Below, piece by piece: positions 2,226-61,181 of a DNA stretch of 64,000 bases; the stretch's first letter is position 1, and each line of letters opens with the position of its first letter. This DNA comes from Desulfobacterales bacterium (GTDB taxonomy: Bacteria; Desulfobacterota; Desulfobulbia; Desulfobulbales; JAGXFP01). The notes beneath the pieces were generated by a model. It worked only from the letters and a program-made list of their open reading frames with translations, was not told the origin of the DNA and did not search any database. A program made the translations under genes and the position numbers. The stretch is from NCBI GenBank assembly GCA_024637225.1, contig JAGXFP010000050.1, positions 11,905 to 75,904 of the forward strand, read 5' to 3'.

Positions 2226-4211
2226 TTACTTCTGTTCAACGATATGGCAGGGATCACACGTTCTCGCGGCAAAAGGTCCATGGAGCTTCTGCTTGAAAAA
2301 TTTCGCATCCTGTGAAGTATGCGGCGTGTGACAATTTACGCAATTAATTACCGCGGGGTCGATGTCAAGATGGGCGTCCTTGAAGCTGTCGCGGTCATAA
2401 TCATGGCATTGGCTGCAGAGATCATGAAGCGGCTGGCTCATCAGCATTGCCGCGTCATCGGAGTAATGCGGCTGATGACAGCGCAGACAATCCCTGGCTG
2501 CCGGCGGATGAATTCTTTCGGTAGCCATTTTATCCTGGATGTCCTGGTGACAGTTAAGGCAAAGCTCGGGGCTTGGGGCCTTAAGCAGGGTTTCCAGCCC
2601 CGATTTATGTGGATCATGGCACTCGGTGCATTGGCCGTCCATCACCACCTGGTGCCTGCTTTCAGCGCTTTTCAGGCCATCCTCAAGGTAATCGTGACAG
2701 GAAAAACAAAGCGACTCCTGCTCAGCCACCAGCATCCCCTTCATATCGCTGGCATGGGGGTCGTGGCAGGTGAGGCAGTCGTCATCCGCAAAGGGAGAAT
2801 GGACATTTTCCCCCGACTCCTTTTTCATTAACGGCTCATGGCATTGCTCACAGAGCTTGTTTCCCCTTTCCTTGAGGAATTTTTTATCGGCGGAGCCGTG
2901 GCCGCTGTGGCAGGCGATGCAGTTGCCCTTCCGGACGGGATCATGAATATTTTTTTTCTGATATTTACTTTCCAGATCCATGTGGCATGAATAACAGACC
3001 TCATCCCCCCTTTTAACCATAAGGTTTGGCAGGTTCGCGCCGTGGGGATTGTGACAGGTTGCGCAATCCGCATCAGCATACGGAGGATGTTGATTTTTCA
3101 GTTTTTTACCCGCGGCCTCGGTCCCGGCGTGGCAGCTGAAACACAACTGATCGACCGCCATGCCGAGCTGGGCCTGATGGGAGCCTGAATGCGCGGCATG
3201 GCAGGATAGACAGCCATCTTCACCCTGCAGGGGTTCATGGGGGAATCTGACGTTTTTCCCGGGATCCTGATGACAGGTAAAGCAGAGAGAATTACCGCCG
3301 GCAACAAGGAGATGCTGCTGATCAGATGTGTGGACATCGTGGCAGGAGAGACATTCACCGCTTTTAAATGGTTCATGCTCGACATCGCCGCCTGCCATCA
3401 AATCGGCTTTATCGTGACAGAAAAAACAGAGCTCCTCGCCTTCCGCCTGAACGGCAAATGGCTTGGCGCCGGAGGGTGATTCGTGGCAGTCTCCGCAAGA
3501 TGCCGATCCAACCGGTTCATGGATGCTGGCTTTCATCAGATTTTTCCGCATTGAGGAGTGCGGCGCGTGACAGCTGTTACAGTCCTCTTTCTCAACGGGA
3601 TATTCACCGTGGGCTTTTTTGAATTTGCCGGCATCACTGTCATGGCAGGAAAGGCAGAGTTCGGGGGCCGTACTGCTGAGCAGATTTTTTTCAGGGGCGG
3701 CATGAACGCTGTGGCAACTCAGGCAGCCATCGTCCTTGATCACCCGGTGTACGACTTTACGATTGTATTCTTCCTCGTCGTGACAGGCAAAACAGACCGA
3801 ATTGCCTTCTGACGCCAGGAGATACGGATCATCGGAGGCATGGGGGTTGTGACAGGAAATACATTCCCCCCTTCTCACCGCGGTATGGACATTCTCCTGG
3901 TTCAGCTTGAGATCCTCAACCTTATGACAGGTATAACAGAGGTTATTCCCATCTTCTTTAAGGATGAGTTTCGCGACTACGCCATGCCGGAGATGACACT
4001 CTTCGCATTTTTCTTCCGCGACCACCTTATGGACGTTCTTCATGGAAAGATACTTTTTGCTGAAATCCGTATGACAGTCCACGCAGCCTTTTTTGGTGAA
4101 TTTCCTTCTCGCGGCCTCGGAATCTTCACTGAAAGCCAAGGCGATCAGGCAGCAGGCGATAACAGCCGCTCCTAAAACGGATAGTTTGCGTTTAAGATTA
4201 TTATTCAACAT
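2226..4211 (-). CDS. Multiheme c-type cytochrome with 26 CXXCH motifs (661 aa)
   Basis: I counted 26 CXXCH motifs, arranged as 13 pairs of about 50 aa each. The hydrophobic N-terminus LSVLGAAVIACCLIALAF is a signal peptide or possible lipobox VIAC. It ends 15 nt upstream of the 16-heme gene. Confidence 0.9.
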   Translation of the reverse strand: MLNNNLKRKLSVLGAAVIACCLIALAFSEDSEAARRKFTKKGCVDCHTDFSKKYLSMKNVHKVVAEEKCEECHLRHGVVAKLILKEDGNNLCYTCHKVEDLKLNQENVHTAVRRGECISCHNPHASDDPYLLASEGNSVCFACHDEEEYNRKVVHRVIKDDGCLSCHSVHAAPEKNLLSSTAPELCLSCHDSDAGKFKKAHGEYPVEKEDCNSCHAPHSSMRKNLMKASIHEPVGSASCGDCHESPSGAKPFAVQAEGEELCFFCHDKADLMAGGDVEHEPFKSGECLSCHDVHTSDQQHLLVAGGNSLCFTCHQDPGKNVRFPHEPLQGEDGCLSCHAAHSGSHQAQLGMAVDQLCFSCHAGTEAAGKKLKNQHPPYADADCATCHNPHGANLPNLMVKRGDEVCYSCHMDLESKYQKKNIHDPVRKGNCIACHSGHGSADKKFLKERGNKLCEQCHEPLMKKESGENVHSPFADDDCLTCHDPHASDMKGMLVAEQESLCFSCHDYLEDGLKSAESRHQVVMDGQCTECHDPHKSGLETLLKAPSPELCLNCHQDIQDKMATERIHPPAARDCLRCHQPHYSDDAAMLMSQPLHDLCSQCHDYDRDSFKDAHLDIDPAVINCVNCHTPHTSQDAKFFKQKLHGPFAARTCDPCHIVEQK

Positions 4212-4241
4212 TATCAGTCCGTTCTTCCATGGGGGTTATTA

Positions 4242-4338
4242 AATGATGGCTTCGCAAAAAAATCGACCTCCTGCGCCGTGGCGAATTTTATCGAACTTCT
4301 TGCTTAGCCATTCGATGACCTTCTGCGACTTTGTCATT
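4242..4338. repeat. Short imperfect-palindrome intergenic element, a degenerate relative of the 33871-34272 repeat family
   Basis: aatgatggcttcgcaaaaaaatcg...gcttagccat...cgatgaccttctgcgactttgtcatt. The arms are roughly complementary. The strings 'tcgcaaaaa..tcg' and 'gcttagccat' match the reverse complement of the tandem unit at 33871. Confidence 0.35.
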
Positions 4339-4391
4339 AAATGATTTATTAATTTTTATTCTTCCGGGCCGGATACTATTGGCGCCTTTTC

Positions 4392-6161
4392 TCACTTACC
4401 GGTATCCGTCAGAAGAATCCTGACGGGATATACTTCCTTGAGCTTCAAGATCCATTCGTCAAGCACCTCTTCGCTTTTCAGACTGAAAACTTTCTTGAGC
4501 ACTTCATCCCTGGCCTCTTCATAGGGCTGCGCTTCCGGCGGATAGACATCGGTCATCAAAAGTACGTAATAAAATTCGCCGTCGGCTGGAGCGTATAGAA
4601 GGGAGTCGCCCTTTTTGACGTCATGGGCGAGCTCTTGCAGATCTTCCGGCAGGGCTGCCAGGCTCAAGAGCTTCTTGTCCAGGGGCAATACTCCATTCGT
4701 GTCCGGGTCGACCAGATTGACGGCATTAGCCGAAATCCAGTTGAAATCGGCTCCCTTGCGCAGTCTGGACAGAGCGAGCTCCGCGTCCGGCCGATTATGG
4801 AGGACCAGGCTTTTTATCCGCAGCATGGTCGAAGAGGAATATTCATCGATATGCTTATCGTAATAGGCGCGGATTTCTTCTTCGGTGACTTCCACCTCGG
4901 GCAGAACGAGCTTGTTCATGAATGTATTGAAGATGACCGATCTTTCAAACTCCTCTACCTTCCTTTTGAAACCTTCCGTCTGGTCAAGACCGAGGCGACG
5001 CGCCTCATAATCGCTGGTGTATCTGAAAATCTTGTTCGCAAGGATTTTCTCTTTGCGGTCATTGACCATTTTCAATTTAGCGGCCTTATCCGCCCCGTGA
5101 TAAAAAGTGCCTTTAAGTTCGGCTGCAAGTTCTGCGACGGTATAGACGAACGGATCAGCATCTCCCTTGGCCTGGGCGAGAATACGCTTGTCCTGGACCA
5201 GTAATTCCAGGTCATTATCAAAATCAAGCTGTTCGTATAATTCTTTATCGACCTTGACATATTTTTCCTGCAGGGCAGCCCCGTATTCCAGAGCCTTCTT
5301 CTTTTGCAGGTTCTCATGAACCCTGCGGTAGGCCTCGTCCCTGGCGGATTGATCCTCGACAAAACGTGTATCGACCAGCCGATACAGGAGGTTGCCTTCC
5401 TCGGTGCGATAAATTTTGCTGTGAGCCCCGGCCTTCATTGCATGCACTTCCTGGGCAATCTCGGATCGCAAGTCCTTTATCTTCACATAGTCATCGTTTT
5501 TCTGTTCCGTTAATTTGCCTTCCTCGATATAGCGTTCGACAACCTGTTCGAAATCGCCATCCTTGATTTCCTCGAGAAACATCCGGGCGGTCGGACCTTC
5601 CGGAAAAAGAAGGGAGTAAAGCTTCACTTCCCGGGATATGTCTCGATACATCTCGTCAACCAGGGCCGAATCAGGCTCAAGGCCCCGAAGATGCTGATTC
5701 ATCAGTTCCTGCCGCAACAGACTCTGCTTGAAATCCTCAATCTGGCTCTTCACATCACCTCTTTCATCCAGGCCGATGTTTATTGCTTCCCGAAAAACAA
5801 GTCTTGCATTTATCAAGCGGTTCAAGACCTGCAGATACTCCTTTTGCCGTTCTTCGGGATCGTCGCTCAACTGCTTATCCTGCCGGGCAAGGGCTTTGGC
5901 CAGCTCATCCTTGGTAACCGCTTCATCATCATCGATCATCGCCACCGGTGTATCGTCGAAAGGCAGTGAAAAAAACGGGGTGGCGAGCTTTTTGAATTTT
6001 TCCGAAGCGGGCTCGGGCATCTGGTTGCCATCGGTTTCAGCGTTGGCTTTGGGCTGGGAATCCTCTCCTCGGGACTCATGGGGATAAAACGGCTGTAAAA
6101 GAATGGCGCCGCAAAAAATGGAAATGCATAGGAAACGATGTATCATTGGATTCACTCTCAT
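4392..6161 (-). CDS. Periplasmic SurA/PpiD-like chaperone with a parvulin-like domain (589 aa)
   Basis: Has an N-terminal signal or anchor sequence and a long helical chaperone-like region. The C-terminal segment (LRIKSLVLHNRPDAELALSRLRKGADF...) looks like a PpiC/parvulin fold, but I cannot see the usual GG(D/E)LG-type motif. Confidence 0.5.
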   Translation of the reverse strand: MRVNPMIHRFLCISIFCGAILLQPFYPHESRGEDSQPKANAETDGNQMPEPASEKFKKLATPFFSLPFDDTPVAMIDDDEAVTKDELAKALARQDKQLSDDPEERQKEYLQVLNRLINARLVFREAINIGLDERGDVKSQIEDFKQSLLRQELMNQHLRGLEPDSALVDEMYRDISREVKLYSLLFPEGPTARMFLEEIKDGDFEQVVERYIEEGKLTEQKNDDYVKIKDLRSEIAQEVHAMKAGAHSKIYRTEEGNLLYRLVDTRFVEDQSARDEAYRRVHENLQKKKALEYGAALQEKYVKVDKELYEQLDFDNDLELLVQDKRILAQAKGDADPFVYTVAELAAELKGTFYHGADKAAKLKMVNDRKEKILANKIFRYTSDYEARRLGLDQTEGFKRKVEEFERSVIFNTFMNKLVLPEVEVTEEEIRAYYDKHIDEYSSSTMLRIKSLVLHNRPDAELALSRLRKGADFNWISANAVNLVDPDTNGVLPLDKKLLSLAALPEDLQELAHDVKKGDSLLYAPADGEFYYVLLMTDVYPPEAQPYEEARDEVLKKVFSLKSEEVLDEWILKLKEVYPVRILLTDTGK

Positions 6162-16512: not shown

Positions 16513-18228
16513 TTACTTTATCTTTTCAAAAAAGAACCAGGGAGTGCTGCGGTTGTGGGCGGCCGAGATCACCGCGGTCTGGCCCGGCAGCACGTCAATG
16601 ACTGACGGAAAGCGATAGACGCACCACTGCCAGCCCGAGGCCGTTTTTTTCTCCGAGGGATGGTTTTCAAAGACAACCGAGTCATCCATCTCAAGTTTGA
16701 TCCACTGAATTATTCCACAACAGCGCCCCTCCTTTCGCACCACCACCTCAATCGTTTTTCTTTCGTGGGAGGGGACGCGCTCGGTTTGGCTAAAATCGAA
16801 GAAAAAGGCGGTGGCATCATCGCTCAGCAGTTCTATATCGAGATCGTTTCTGCTGATATATTGTTTCCGGGCAATAATTTCGTTGAATTTGCTCAAGTCG
16901 AAGCCGCATACTTCATCAACTCGAATATTCTGTTCCAGGCCGGCACCGCCGAACAGGGCGAATTGAATGGAGCCGCCGGCCGGAATGATGCGGGCGCCCG
17001 GTTTAAGCAGCCTGCGCCTGGCATCTTCGATGCTGCTCAGCACCCCCTCGCCAAGCAGCTCGCTCGAGAGAATCTCCGAGACCAGCAGGTCGGCCCGATC
17101 ATCCATATCCGTCCCGACTTCCATTTTGGACGACATCTTGGGGATCACCGTCACCGGCGGAGTGCAGCCGTTGTCCGCCAGGATTGCCCGGGCGGTCTCG
17201 GCGATTTCGGCAACCGCCTCGCAGGTTGTCACCTGCCGAGCCCCCAGCCTGCCGGCCATCATGGCAAGCAGGCCTGAGCCCGTCCCGATTTCCAGAACAT
17301 GGCTGTCGGGGGTGACCGCATTTTTCAGGGCGGCAAAATAGGCATCATTACGCCGATGGTCGTTCATCATCGGCGGATGCCATAAGGGAACCAGCCGACT
17401 GAGTGCCTGGTTGAGGCCGTCATGGGCCTTTATCCACAGGGGATCGAGATCGATGCATTGCCGATAACAGGGAATGGCGTCGCTGAATTGTCCCCGTCCC
17501 AGCAGGGTATCACCCAGTCCGCTGCAAGCCCGGGCATAATCCGGCTTGAGCGCGAGGGCCTGCCGAAAAGATTTCTCCGCTTCGTCGAGACGGCGAAGTT
17601 CGAGGAGGACATAGCCCAGGTTGCTGTGGGCTTCGGCAAAATCGGGCTTGATGGTCAGGGCATTCCGGTAGCTTGCCTCCGCCTCGTCCAGGCGTCTGAG
17701 TTCCTTGAGGGCATTACCGAGATTATTGTGGGCCTCGGGAAAATCCCACTGATGGACGAGGGCTTCCCAGTAGCTTGCCACCGCTTCTTCAAGACGTCCG
17801 AGTTCCAGAAGGGTAATGCCGAGATTGCTGTGGGCCTGGGCATATTCGGGATTAAGCGCCAGGGCCTGCCGGTAGCGTGCCTCCGCTTCCGGCAAGCGCC
17901 CGAGTCCCAGGAAAACGCTGCCGAGATTTTGATGCGCCTGGGCATCAGCGGGATCAAGCTCTATGCTTTTCGTCAGGAATTTCAAGGCATCAGCCGGTTT
18001 CCCCAGCATAAGATAAAGATTGCCGAGGGCCTTCCAGCCCAGAGAACTGCCGGGCCACTGTTTGACTGCCTCATGGGCCTTCTGTTCAAAAAGAGGCCAC
18101 GCCCCGGCATTAAACAAATCCACCATTTCCTTGACGAAACCCGCCGGTGGCTCAGGAGTGGCTCCGCCTTTTGGGGGAGAGTGTCTGGAATGATGGCTGC
18201 GCGAGCGATTTTTTTTTATTTTTTTCAT
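16513..18228 (-). CDS. TPR-repeat / class I SAM-dependent methyltransferase fusion, PRMT-like (571 aa)
   Basis: The N-terminal half has about 7 TPR repeats. The C-terminal half carries SAM motif I, VLEIGTGSGLLAMMAGRLGA, followed by a beta-rich domain as in protein arginine methyltransferases. Confidence 0.65.
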   Translation of the reverse strand: MKKIKKNRSRSHHSRHSPPKGGATPEPPAGFVKEMVDLFNAGAWPLFEQKAHEAVKQWPGSSLGWKALGNLYLMLGKPADALKFLTKSIELDPADAQAHQNLGSVFLGLGRLPEAEARYRQALALNPEYAQAHSNLGITLLELGRLEEAVASYWEALVHQWDFPEAHNNLGNALKELRRLDEAEASYRNALTIKPDFAEAHSNLGYVLLELRRLDEAEKSFRQALALKPDYARACSGLGDTLLGRGQFSDAIPCYRQCIDLDPLWIKAHDGLNQALSRLVPLWHPPMMNDHRRNDAYFAALKNAVTPDSHVLEIGTGSGLLAMMAGRLGARQVTTCEAVAEIAETARAILADNGCTPPVTVIPKMSSKMEVGTDMDDRADLLVSEILSSELLGEGVLSSIEDARRRLLKPGARIIPAGGSIQFALFGGAGLEQNIRVDEVCGFDLSKFNEIIARKQYISRNDLDIELLSDDATAFFFDFSQTERVPSHERKTIEVVVRKEGRCCGIIQWIKLEMDDSVVFENHPSEKKTASGWQWCVYRFPSVIDVLPGQTAVISAAHNRSTPWFFFEKIK

Positions 18229-21245: not shown

Positions 21246-21350
21246 GATGGCTTAGCAAAAAGTCGCCAGTTCCTTGCGTTGCTGCAGATTGTCGCATCAT
21301 TGCAGCATACTGAAGTAGGCTTCATATGACGCCTTTCTGCGACGCCATCA
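21246..21350 (-). repeat. Inverted copy of the family A repeat (see 33871-34272)
   Basis: gcaaaaagtcgccagttccttgcgttgctgcagattgtcgcatcattgcagcatactgaagtaggcttcat matches the reverse complement of the tandem unit over about 85 nt. It is followed by a direct-orientation ...ctttctgcgacgccatc end. Confidence 0.6.
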
Positions 21351-24181: not shown

Positions 24182-24344
24182 CTAGTGTCTGTCCAGGAAT
24201 GAGGACTTTTCTTCGAGAACGAGAAGCAAGGATGTCGGAAAAGCACCCTAAAAGGCATAAACTTCACATACTTGGGTACGTGAGCACTTTCCGACTCTGC
24301 AACCGACGAAGTTCTCGGCAAAAAGACTTTTATGGATAGACACT
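24182..24344. repeat. MITE-like element with terminal inverted repeats (family B, copy 1)
   Basis: Termini are ctagtgtctgtcc...ggatagacact. About 120 nt are shared with 61036-61181 (cgagaacgagaagcaaggatgtcggaaaagc ... gtacgtgagcactttccgactc.gc...gacgaagtt.tcgg.caaaaagact). Confidence 0.7.
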
Positions 24345-33506: not shown

Positions 33507-33644
33507 TGCCAAGTTCGCAAGAAGCATAAAGCCCTTCACCGGCTCATGGAAAAAAAATCCTGCGAGACAGGACAAACTTTCCCGTATAAGAAGAAAATCA
33601 ACGAACCGGTCAATAAGACCAAAAGTCAACAGGAGGAAGAGATC

Positions 33645-33842
33645 ATGGCGGAACCTTTTTATATAGACTATGACGAATGCATTGCCTGTGGAACCTGTGC
33701 GGAAATCTGTCCGGATTGCTTCAAGTTTGACGACTCCATGGCGCATGCGGAAGTCACGGGCTTTGACTGCCCAAAGGATCTGGTCCAGGAAGCAATGGAT
33801 AATTGCCCGGTCACCTGTATTTACTGGGGAGAAGAACCTTAA
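33645..33842 (+). CDS. Small single-cluster ferredoxin (65 aa)
   Basis: I trimmed the ORF to MAEPFYIDYDECIACGTCAEICPDC...CP, which has AGGAGGAAG upstream. CxxCxxCxxxCP motif. Confidence 0.8.
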   Translation: MAEPFYIDYDECIACGTCAEICPDCFKFDDSMAHAEVTGFDCPKDLVQEAMDNCPVTCIYWGEEP

Positions 33843-33870
33843 TAAAGTTGACAAAGTCGCAAGTCACTGG

Positions 33871-34272
33871 ATGGCTAAGCTAAAATCGCCGAATCCAAGG
33901 CGCGCGAATTTCGAGGAATGATGCGTACTTCAGTACGCTGCGACGAGAGAATTTGCAGCAACGCGGGAGCCGGCGACTTTTTGCGACGCCGTCATTCTCG
34001 ATGGGAATGGCTAAGCTAAAATCGTCAGATCCAAGGCGCCCAAATTTCGAGGAATGAAGCGTACTTCAGTACGCTGCAATGACGAGACAATTTGCAGCAA
34101 CGCGGGAGCTGGCGACTTTTTGCGACGCCGTCATTCTCGATGGGAATGGCTAAGCTAAAATCGTCAGATCCAAGGCGCGCAAATTTCGAGGAATGAAGCG
34201 TACTTCAGTACGCTGCAATGACGAGACAATTTGCAGCAACGCGGGAGCTGGCGACTTTTTGCGACGCCATCT
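33871..34272 (+). repeat. Tandem array of three 136-139-bp imperfect-palindrome units (family A)
   Basis: The unit starts (atggctaagctaaaatcg...) lie at 33871, 34007 and 34146. Each unit contains an agcgtac-ttca-gtacgct hairpin at its centre and arms that are roughly reverse-complementary. Confidence 0.9.
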
Positions 34273-34274
34273 TT

Positions 34275-35696
34275 TCAGCAGAGCGGTTCCAGGGAAGTAC
34301 TGCGGCACATGAGGTTTTCCAGTTCCGGCCGCTCGCAGGAAAGCTTCTTCATGCCGTTCCGTAAAGCCGATTGCAACCCTTCCTCCACGGTCGGATGGTA
34401 GTAGGGAAAGCGGAGAATATCGAAAACGGTCAAATTCTCCTGAATGGCCCAGGCCAGCAGATGGGCGAGATGCTCACCGCCTGGGGCTGCCATCTCGCCT
34501 CCCAGCAGGCGGCCGTCATTCTTGTCGAGATAGATCCGGGCGAGTCCCCGGTTTTCAGCGCGCATCCGCGCCCGCCCCTGTCTGCCGAAATCATATTCAC
34601 CGATAACCACATCATCAGAGTCGCTGAGCTCCGCAAACGATGCCCCGACCATGGCGATCTGGGGATCGGAATAGACAATCGCCAAAGGTGTCCGCCGCCG
34701 GAAGCAGTTGGCTTCCTTACGCACGGCGTTGTAACCGGCGATATGACCTTCGTCGTTGGCCTCATGGAGAATGGCTCGTTCGTTGTTCACGTCTCCGGCA
34801 ATAAAGATCGGCGAGTCCCCGATCCGCATCGATTCACGATCGAAGACGGGAACCCCGTGGGCGTCAGTTTCGAGATCAAGCTCCTCAAGGCCCAGACCGG
34901 AGAGATTGGGCCGCCGCCCCGTGCATAACAGGGCCTTTTCGACCATAACCCGCTGATTCCTGCTCTGAAGGAGCAATTCTTCGCCCTGCCGAAGCGGGTC
35001 CACTTTAGCGCCGAGATTGATTGAGTATTCCTCCCGCAGAGCGGCCAGCGCCGCCGAGTTCACTTCCGGGTCGGTCAGCCCCGCCGCCATATCGGCGAGA
35101 TGAAAACCGTGCACCTCAATCCCCAGACGGCTTAAGGCCTGGGAGAACTCGATCCCGGAAGGGCCGAGCCCGATTACCGCCATGCGGCGGGGCAGTTGAT
35201 CTAGTTCGAAAAATTGATCGGTGGTGACCACCAGACCGCCCAGGTTTTCCCAGCCGGATGGAATTATCGGACTGGAGCCGGTGGCGATTACCACCCGGCC
35301 CGCCTCGACGATGTCGTCGCCGATCCGCAGAACCGCGGGCTCGATAAACCGCGCCGGCGCCTCGATGCTTTTTTCACCGAGAGCCTTGGTTCCCTTGACT
35401 GTCCCGGCCACGAAGCGATCCCGCAGACCTTTGACGTAGGCCAGGGCATCCTTCGACTCCAGGCTCAGATTTTCTACCCCGGCAACTCCCATCCCGGCCA
35501 TGATCCGGCGGGAATGGAAGACCGCGGCGACTTCGCACAGGGTTTTGGTAGGCATGCAGGCCACCCGGGCGCAAGTAGTGCCGTAGGGTCCCTGATTGAC
35601 CAGCAGGAAGTCATCGGTTACCCGTTTGACCTCGGCCACCGCCGACAGCCCCGCCGTTCCGGCGCCGATAATCACCACTTCAACTCTCTTCGTCAT
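34275..35696 (-). CDS. Class I pyridine-nucleotide-disulfide oxidoreductase (dihydrolipoamide dehydrogenase-like flavoprotein)
   Basis: FAD-binding site VVIIGAGTAGLSA. Redox-active CxxxxC (TTCARVACMPTK). Second dinucleotide fold MAVIGLGPSGIE. C-terminal HPTVEE dimer-interface motif. The start overlaps the atpG stop (ATGA). Confidence 0.85.
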   Translation of the reverse strand: MTKRVEVVIIGAGTAGLSAVAEVKRVTDDFLLVNQGPYGTTCARVACMPTKTLCEVAAVFHSRRIMAGMGVAGVENLSLESKDALAYVKGLRDRFVAGTVKGTKALGEKSIEAPARFIEPAVLRIGDDIVEAGRVVIATGSSPIIPSGWENLGGLVVTTDQFFELDQLPRRMAVIGLGPSGIEFSQALSRLGIEVHGFHLADMAAGLTDPEVNSAALAALREEYSINLGAKVDPLRQGEELLLQSRNQRVMVEKALLCTGRRPNLSGLGLEELDLETDAHGVPVFDRESMRIGDSPIFIAGDVNNERAILHEANDEGHIAGYNAVRKEANCFRRRTPLAIVYSDPQIAMVGASFAELSDSDDVVIGEYDFGRQGRARMRAENRGLARIYLDKNDGRLLGGEMAAPGGEHLAHLLAWAIQENLTVFDILRFPYYHPTVEEGLQSALRNGMKKLSCERPELENLMCRSTSLEPLC

Positions 35697-61035: not shown

Positions 61036-61181
61036 CTAGTGCCTGTCGAGAAATGAGGATTTTTGTCCGAGAACGAGAAGCAAGGATGTCGGAAAAGCGC
61101 AGCGTACTCAGGTACGTGAGCACTTTCCGACTCCGCGGCGACGAAGTTATCGGGCAAAAAGACTATTTATGGACAGGCGCT
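61036..61181. repeat. MITE-like element with terminal inverted repeats (family B, copy 2)
   Basis: Termini are ctagtgcctgtcg...ggacaggcgct. The core matches 24182-24344. The central hairpin is cgtac-tcag-gtacg. It sits between the HAMP gene stop and the cheA start. Confidence 0.7.

Follow-up and report, generated by a model that had tools for sequence, protein, structure and literature searches.

A tandem array between convergent ferredoxin and oxidoreductase genes that very probably consists of three units of a MITE from the Desulfobulbales

The window analysed here is the whole stretch of 64,000 nucleotides, taken from the genome of a member of the Desulfurivibrionaceae (MAG G000, 88 % complete, with the smallest contigs not under 5 kb). 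Near its middle, a ferredoxin gene and a flavoprotein gene converge on a short array of near-identical hairpin units, and the question raised by this locus is what the units are, whether they have a role as RNA, and how three of them came to lie head-to-tail in one gap. An earlier note made from the sequence had suggested a terminator, an RNA-stability element or a non-coding RNA. The features of the locus, together with one relative of the unit found elsewhere in the window, are as follows.

21246..21349, minus strand: short or truncated relative, 104 bp, bearing the left and right terminal repeats and some of the family-A core (sequence match)
33645..33842, plus strand: ferredoxin gene, left flank, 65 aa, 4Fe-4S (Pfam Fer4_13, E 3.5e-13)
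33840-33842, plus strand: ferredoxin stop codon TAA, 7 nt before the array
33850..33870, plus strand: degenerate outer left terminal inverted repeat, GACAAAGTCGCAAGTCACTGG (sequence)
33871..33993, plus strand: unit 1, ATGGCTAAGC...GCGACGCCGTC, body and right-end repeat (alignment)
33994..34006, plus strand: junction 1, the 6-nt spacer ATTCTC followed by GATGGGA, a shortened left repeat (sequence)
34007..34132, plus strand: unit 2, body and right-end repeat (alignment, blastn)
34133..34145, plus strand: junction 2, identical to junction 1 (sequence)
34146..34271, plus strand: unit 3, body and canonical right end GACTTTTTGCGACGCCATC (alignment)
34275..35696, minus strand: pyridine-nucleotide-disulfide oxidoreductase gene, right flank (Pfam Pyr_redox_2, E 2.3e-35)

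Tandem Repeats Finder reported positions 33871-34268 as a repeat with a period of 139 bp, 2.9 copies, 95 % matches and a score of 719, by far the strongest tandem repeat of the window, and the three units aligned with a mean column identity of 94 %, which bears out the near-identical tandem units read from 33871 onwards. Units 2 and 3 are 97.7-98 % alike and differ at one or two positions; unit 1 is about 92 % alike, is the most diverged of the three (88 % to the family consensus) and carries a 3-nt deletion. Each unit is an imperfect hairpin, and the units are arranged head-to-tail. The repeat therefore stands as first described, with its boundaries redrawn: the element begins at 33850, at the degenerate left repeat, and ends at 34271. 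With this outer left end the array takes up 422 of the 432 nt between the two flanking stop codons, leaving 3 nt between the end of unit 3 and the TGA of the oxidoreductase gene (34275-34277), and the description of an array filling the gap between the ferredoxin gene and the end of a convergent operon was confirmed, with Pfam domains on both flanks. A single outer left end is present, and the internal junctions are short of about 21 nt of the left repeat. The absence of a coding frame was likewise upheld, the longest ORF touching the array being 52 aa and the 139-bp period shifting the frame from unit to unit. A CRISPR array is ruled out, as had been proposed, because the units abut through identical 13-nt junctions and there are no unique spacers.

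Other repeats were seen in the window. Positions 17575-17910 hold a 102-bp tandem repeat (3.3 copies, 71 % matches) that probably encodes a protein repeat, and a different MITE-like element with CTAGTGTCTGTCC ends has been reported at 24182-24344 and 61036-61181.

A dispersed family with inverted ends and target duplications

The unit is not a local feature. When one unit was compared with its own genome (3.28 Mb, 74 contigs) by blastn, 143 hits were obtained, and the 97-nt core gave 131 hits at about 114-115 loci (101 single, 9 double and 4 triple), so that some 130 units are dispersed genome-wide. Several contigs of this genome start or stop within a family copy. Alignment of 117 copies with their flanks revealed that the 127-bp unit ATGGCTAAGC...GCGACGCCATC is usually preceded by a stretch of about 28 nt, GAYRAGTTCGCAAAAAGTCAAAAATGGG, which is an inverted copy of the right end GACTTTTTGCGACGCCATC. 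The full element is thus about 154 bp long, with imperfect terminal inverted repeats of 19-21 bp (GATGRNKTCGCAAAAAGTC...GACTTTTTGCGACGCCATC). In the family consensus the left end reads GAYRAGTTCGCAAAAAGTC and the right end GACTTTTTGCGACGCCATC; the terminal motif is TCGCAAAAAGTC. The right end is conserved at 90 % or more per position and the left end at 50-70 %. Long forms of about 193-230 bp have additional GC hairpin modules, one or two in number and about 20 nt each, or else a left-arm module of about 55 nt. With a consensus of 154 bp and no ORF longer than 52 aa touching the array, the element falls within the size range of MITEs (non-coding, less than about 300 bp), and it has their inverted ends (GAYRAGTTCGCAAAAAGTC against GACTTTTTGCGACGCCATC).

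These ends are shared with other repeat families whose bodies are quite different. At least three other families of the same genome end in CTTTTTGCGACGCCATCA (for example at C7:524, C27:25642, C34:178621 and C38:34789), their bodies reading ...AGATTTCTCCCGTTGGTCGAAATGACATTATGGCAATCCCGA, ...GGATTGCTTCGCTACGCTCGCAATGACT... and ...GAGGCCATACATGTGGTATGCCGAAGGAGCAAAAATGCGCTACGACGCAGTAGATCGGAG, and the families that share this right end form a superfamily with interchangeable bodies. Solitary right-end-like motifs were also seen elsewhere in the window, at 4244-4261 and 6101-6118.

Within the genus the distribution is patchy: of the seven other genomes, three (G002, G003, G005) have many copies, and no copy was found in the remaining four (G001, G004, G006, G007). 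Elsewhere in the order, three other families have single copies, 81-87 % identical. Titles of public contigs with the element name Desulfurivibrionaceae, Desulfurivibrio, Desulfobulbaceae and Desulfobulbales MAGs, with a few looser labels. Of 121 genomes sampled across the order, 67 (in 36 of 54 genera) contain a 17-mer of the right end, with one mismatch allowed; the reversed 17-mer, used as a control, had almost no matches among the sampled genomes. About 500 right-end-like motifs were counted in the array's own genome, against about 30 predicted from a shuffled contig. Many contigs of G002 break 77-78 nt into the element (for example C443:1-78, C6:1-77 and C80:1-78), the pattern left when an assembly breaks at a repeat with many near-identical copies. 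No paper on MITEs of Desulfobulbales or Desulfurivibrio was found in the literature searched.

Evidence for mobility was obtained from the 87 elements of which both ends could be recognised. Target duplications peaked sharply at exactly 6 bp, with 18 of the 87 elements having exact 6-bp flanks (0.88 expected from shuffled pairings) and 44 having flanks with at most one mismatch; duplications of 5, 7 or 8 bp were not in excess among these elements. The target is an AT-rich hexamer with the consensus A-W-N-N-T-T. In four cases the outer bases depart from this consensus and still agree with each other, which favours a duplication of 6 bp over one of 4 bp with longer ends. On contig C43 a 289-bp copy of two units has ATAATT on each side; at the corresponding site of G002 and G003 a single ATAATT stands between flanks that are 95-96 % identical, with nothing inserted, which is an empty site. 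The family is therefore present in many dispersed copies that differ in presence or absence between sister species. A matching target duplication is missing at the window array, which is bordered by AAAGTT on its left and by TTTTCA on its right, and likewise at the orthologues in G002 and G003. No empty site was found at the window locus, the oxidoreductase gene having no orthologue in those genomes of the genus that lack the family.

Taken together, the terminal inverted repeats, the 6-bp AWNNTT duplication and the two-unit copy whose site is empty in G002 and G003 make it very probable that the array is built from three units, placed head-to-tail, of a MITE. This non-autonomous DNA transposon, about 154 bp long, is abundant among the Desulfurivibrionaceae and also in other Desulfobulbales.

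RNA folding and docking on stop codons

The best-surviving alternative is that the units, or the family, are a selected cis-acting RNA, a terminator, 3'-end protector or insulator, a role that may coexist with a MITE origin. Folding gives it some support. The central motif AGCGTAC-TTCA-GTACGCT and the arms quoted in the earlier note are present and coincide with helices of the comparative consensus structure. The 139-nt unit, taken in the phase first chosen, folds no better than shuffles (z -1.6 and -1.3), and better values were obtained with the 154-nt family consensus (-55 kcal/mol, z -4.5, with none of 200 shuffles as good) and with the whole array (z -3.0). When the consensus helices were mapped onto 63 diverse copies, 97.7 % of cells paired. 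Five base pairs persist through two-sided changes, seen in 45 cells against 10 in shuffles and far fewer in slid controls; the number of pairs with double changes (5 against 3.6 in shuffles) is not significant and the copies are related, so that the compensatory changes amount to few independent events.

The position of the copies gives further support. Of the 87 elements, 23 are flanked by a long ORF whose stop codon falls inside the duplicated hexamer; for random intergenic AWNNTT sites the share is 2 %. In 18 cases the stop is a TGA, the duplication supplying its final T and the element its terminal GA. Counted another way, about 22-26 of 107 copies, roughly a quarter, have their right end exactly on a facing stop codon and often create the TGA, again against 2 % for random AWNNTT sites. 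For family A such docking was found at 24 of 82 right ends and at 1 of 39 left ends (Fisher p = 0.0005). An intact element in the stop-docked orientation presents a hairpin followed by CCAUUUUUGACUUUUU in the consensus, which is terminator-like, and the window array, where the oxidoreductase TGA is the local example of a stop beside a right end, sits at the 3' ends of two genes.

Against such a role, no intrinsic-terminator-like site of hairpin plus T-run was found within 33850-34271 on either strand (two sites were found at 33529-33573), the U-rich left region being degenerate or deleted and the CCAUUUUUGACUUUUU tract lost from the window array. Rfam, searched at a permissive threshold, gave no match in the array and three chance-level hits outside it (E 1.7-5.6), and a consensus scan found no sigma-70-like promoter in the array. 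With crude ORF calling, gaps that hold family copies were convergent in 25 cases, divergent in 34 and tandem in 41, so that copies also occur on the promoter side of genes; of the copies in tandem contexts, 19 share the strand of the genes and 22 have the opposite one, and a stop is faced by 40 right ends, a start by 42. The lack of an overall orientation bias argues against a strand-specific function of the family as a whole, and together with the absence of an Rfam match, promoter or terminator it leaves the suggested terminator, RNA-stability or non-coding RNA reading unsupported. A selected cis-acting RNA is accordingly considered unlikely, and the effect of the MITE array on the two convergent transcripts, if any, would be a by-product of its hairpins.

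The docking on stop codons and the conserved hairpin nevertheless hint at constraints beyond mobility. A more far-reaching proposal can be built on them, in which the conserved right end is a portable module for gene 3' ends: docking in one orientation, it would regenerate the stop codon as T|GA and place a selected hairpin, with the U-rich tract where this is intact, after the coding sequence, so that the spread of the MITE would have rewired transcript ends across the Desulfobulbales and the window array would be a triple version. This proposal is given a slightly smaller chance still than the cis-acting RNA in general.

Junctions, probable growth of the array and the predicted mobilizing enzyme

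Two types of junction between units occur in the genome. In the first, a right end, 6 nt and a complete left end follow one another, and the period is 152-160 bp. In some 40-50 % of elements the left duplication is preceded by the five bases CCATC, which indicates that elements often lie head-to-tail against an older right end. In the second, which is that of the window array, GCGACGCCGTC is followed by ATTCTC, GATGGGA and ATGGCTAAGC, and the period is 139-141 bp. To judge from the sequences, this second junction would be a full junction minus 21 nt of the left repeat between ATG triplets, GATG[AGTTCGCAAAAAGTCAAAAAT]GGG. Junctions made up of a right end, NNTCTC, GATGGG and ATGGCTAAGC recur at ten or more other loci, sometimes after an element of another family, and the same type was found in three-unit arrays of independent assemblies (contig C95 of G003, and locus L084). 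This recurrence points to a common origin and not to duplications made at each locus; as this holds for the spacer ATTCTC too, the window array is not accounted for by simple repeated insertion. The 289-bp dimer on C43, with its ATAATT flanks and empty sister sites, shows that such a composite transposes as a single piece.

At the window locus, G002 has one unit with an identical 21-nt degenerate left end, in the short form and with 26 extra nt on the right flank. The orthologue in G003 (L146, contig C178; corresponding to window positions 33843-34274) is one long-form unit, about 190 bp in length, whose ends are perfect and which contains two additional GC hairpin modules, ATGCAATGCCCCCTTGCGGGTG and TTTATGCCCTTCAGGGTGC. 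The single unit in both sisters, and the lack of a duplication in any of the three genomes, imply that G000 gained the junction-plus-unit sequence after the split.

These observations suggest the following course of events. Elements often land beside an existing right end, a pattern seen in the right end-N6-left end junctions, and in one lineage a deletion of 21 nt would have removed the internal left repeat, fusing two units as a composite. At the window locus the ancestor probably had one unit, as G002 and G003 do now. The gain in G000 would most simply have come about by ectopic recombination or gene conversion with another array, which fits with the CCGTC variant shared by the right end of unit 1 and the C43 junction. 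Unit 2/3 may then have doubled through unequal exchange; unit 2 has its closest relative in unit 3 and vice versa (97.7 %), which argues for a recent local duplication. An age gradient across arrays, with old units on the left and young units on the right, was considered and dropped (7 of 9 arrays, p = 0.18).

The alternative that the array is an assembly artefact, with a single unit expanded or a longer array collapsed, would agree with the one or two differences between units 2 and 3, with a short-read MAG whose contigs are broken by repeats, and with the single unit at this site in the sister genomes. It is nonetheless very improbable, as unit 1 differs from units 2 and 3 by about 8 %, the junction sequences are specific, and arrays of two or three units with the same type of junction occur at ten or more loci and in the independent assemblies named above.

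As to the enzyme, the fixed length of the duplication suggests a DDE-type transposase, which is predicted to bind the conserved ends of the MITE and to move it in trans. An autonomous partner was searched for as pairs of left and right ends 600-4500 bp apart in the array's own genome and about 140 fetched loci, and none was found; relaxed 10-mer end pairs, with a check for duplications, enclosed ordinary genes between MITEs. None of the Pfam rve (one) and DDE_Tnp_1 (two) genes of the genome carries the repeat. The neighbours of orphan ends in G083 and of solitary right ends in G050, G090, G011 and G078 were ordinary genes. The loci of NCBIfam ISNCY_1 transposases of the order are without the repeat; the ISDol1 group reportedly makes target duplications of 6-7 bp. 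A plasmid collection gave no match. As the MAG is 88 % complete and lacks contigs below 5 kb, a multi-copy IS could be missing from the assembly.

The IS4-type DDE_Tnp_1 genes of this genome lie at contig edges (C49:54107-55318 and C35:2-493) and have no MITE terminal repeat, and the sequence after the C35 gene resembles a repeat beside C29:13072, possibly another MITE derived from that IS. A fragment at C31:3401-3856 was judged to be IS110-like by eye from its translation.

The weakest alternative, that the units are REP/REPIN-like elements moved by a Y1 (RAYT/IS200-like) transposase, can draw on the hairpin-rich, clustered nature of the elements and on multi-copy ORFs in which the motif ...CLMSNHYHLL..., typical of IS200-like Y1 transposases, was recognised by eye in translations (C56:3-665, 681-1343 and 3884-4798; C58:6028-6682), but is regarded as the least probable of all, because there is a fixed 6-bp duplication with a clean empty site whereas Y1 enzymes leave no duplication, the terminal inverted repeats read GATGG...CCATC with no GTAG-type REP head, and no copies were seen flanking the Y1-like ORFs.

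Significance and comparison with known systems

With the MITE reading, a structured array is explained as ordinary mobile DNA and can be taken off the list of candidate regulatory RNAs. The family and its same-ended relatives account for hundreds of intergenic repeats in annotation, and yield spurious small ORFs and contig breaks in MAGs of the Desulfobulbales. Two features may interest specialists, namely the junction-deleted composite dimers that transpose as one, and the supply of TGA at stop codons by the right end only.

Among known systems, the dimer and circle junctions of IS elements (IS30, IS21, IS911 and IS256) likewise have abutted ends; here the junction is CCATC-N6-GATG, its spacer having the length of a target duplication and being equal to the flanking one, so that repeated insertion at one hexamer would fit as well as dimer formation would. 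MIRU elements form tandem arrays of variable unit number in operon gaps, and their ends overlap flanking stop codons. The likeness in this tandem, stop-codon-touching habit is a lead only, as MIRU are 46-101 bp long and contain small ORFs, and unlike the present family they have no terminal inverted repeats or target duplication.

In kind the family is closest to the ERIC/IRU and Correia elements. The Correia elements of Neisseria (NEMIS/CREE) are, like the present family, MITEs of 100-155 bp with inverted ends, in very high copy number and often near gene ends, and their hairpin RNA can affect neighbouring transcripts. They differ in having a TA duplication, 26-bp repeats and an IHF site, whereas this family has a 6-bp AWNNTT duplication and unrelated ends. 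The ERIC/IRU elements of the Enterobacteriaceae, imperfect palindromes of about 127 bp, are alike in size, in the long imperfect hairpin, in intergenic position and in high copy number, and both are lengthened by optional insertions, which in this family are two GC hairpin modules of about 20 nt. There is no relation in sequence, and the present family is set apart by its 6-bp duplication, empty sites, head-to-tail arrays and hosts among the Desulfobulbales.
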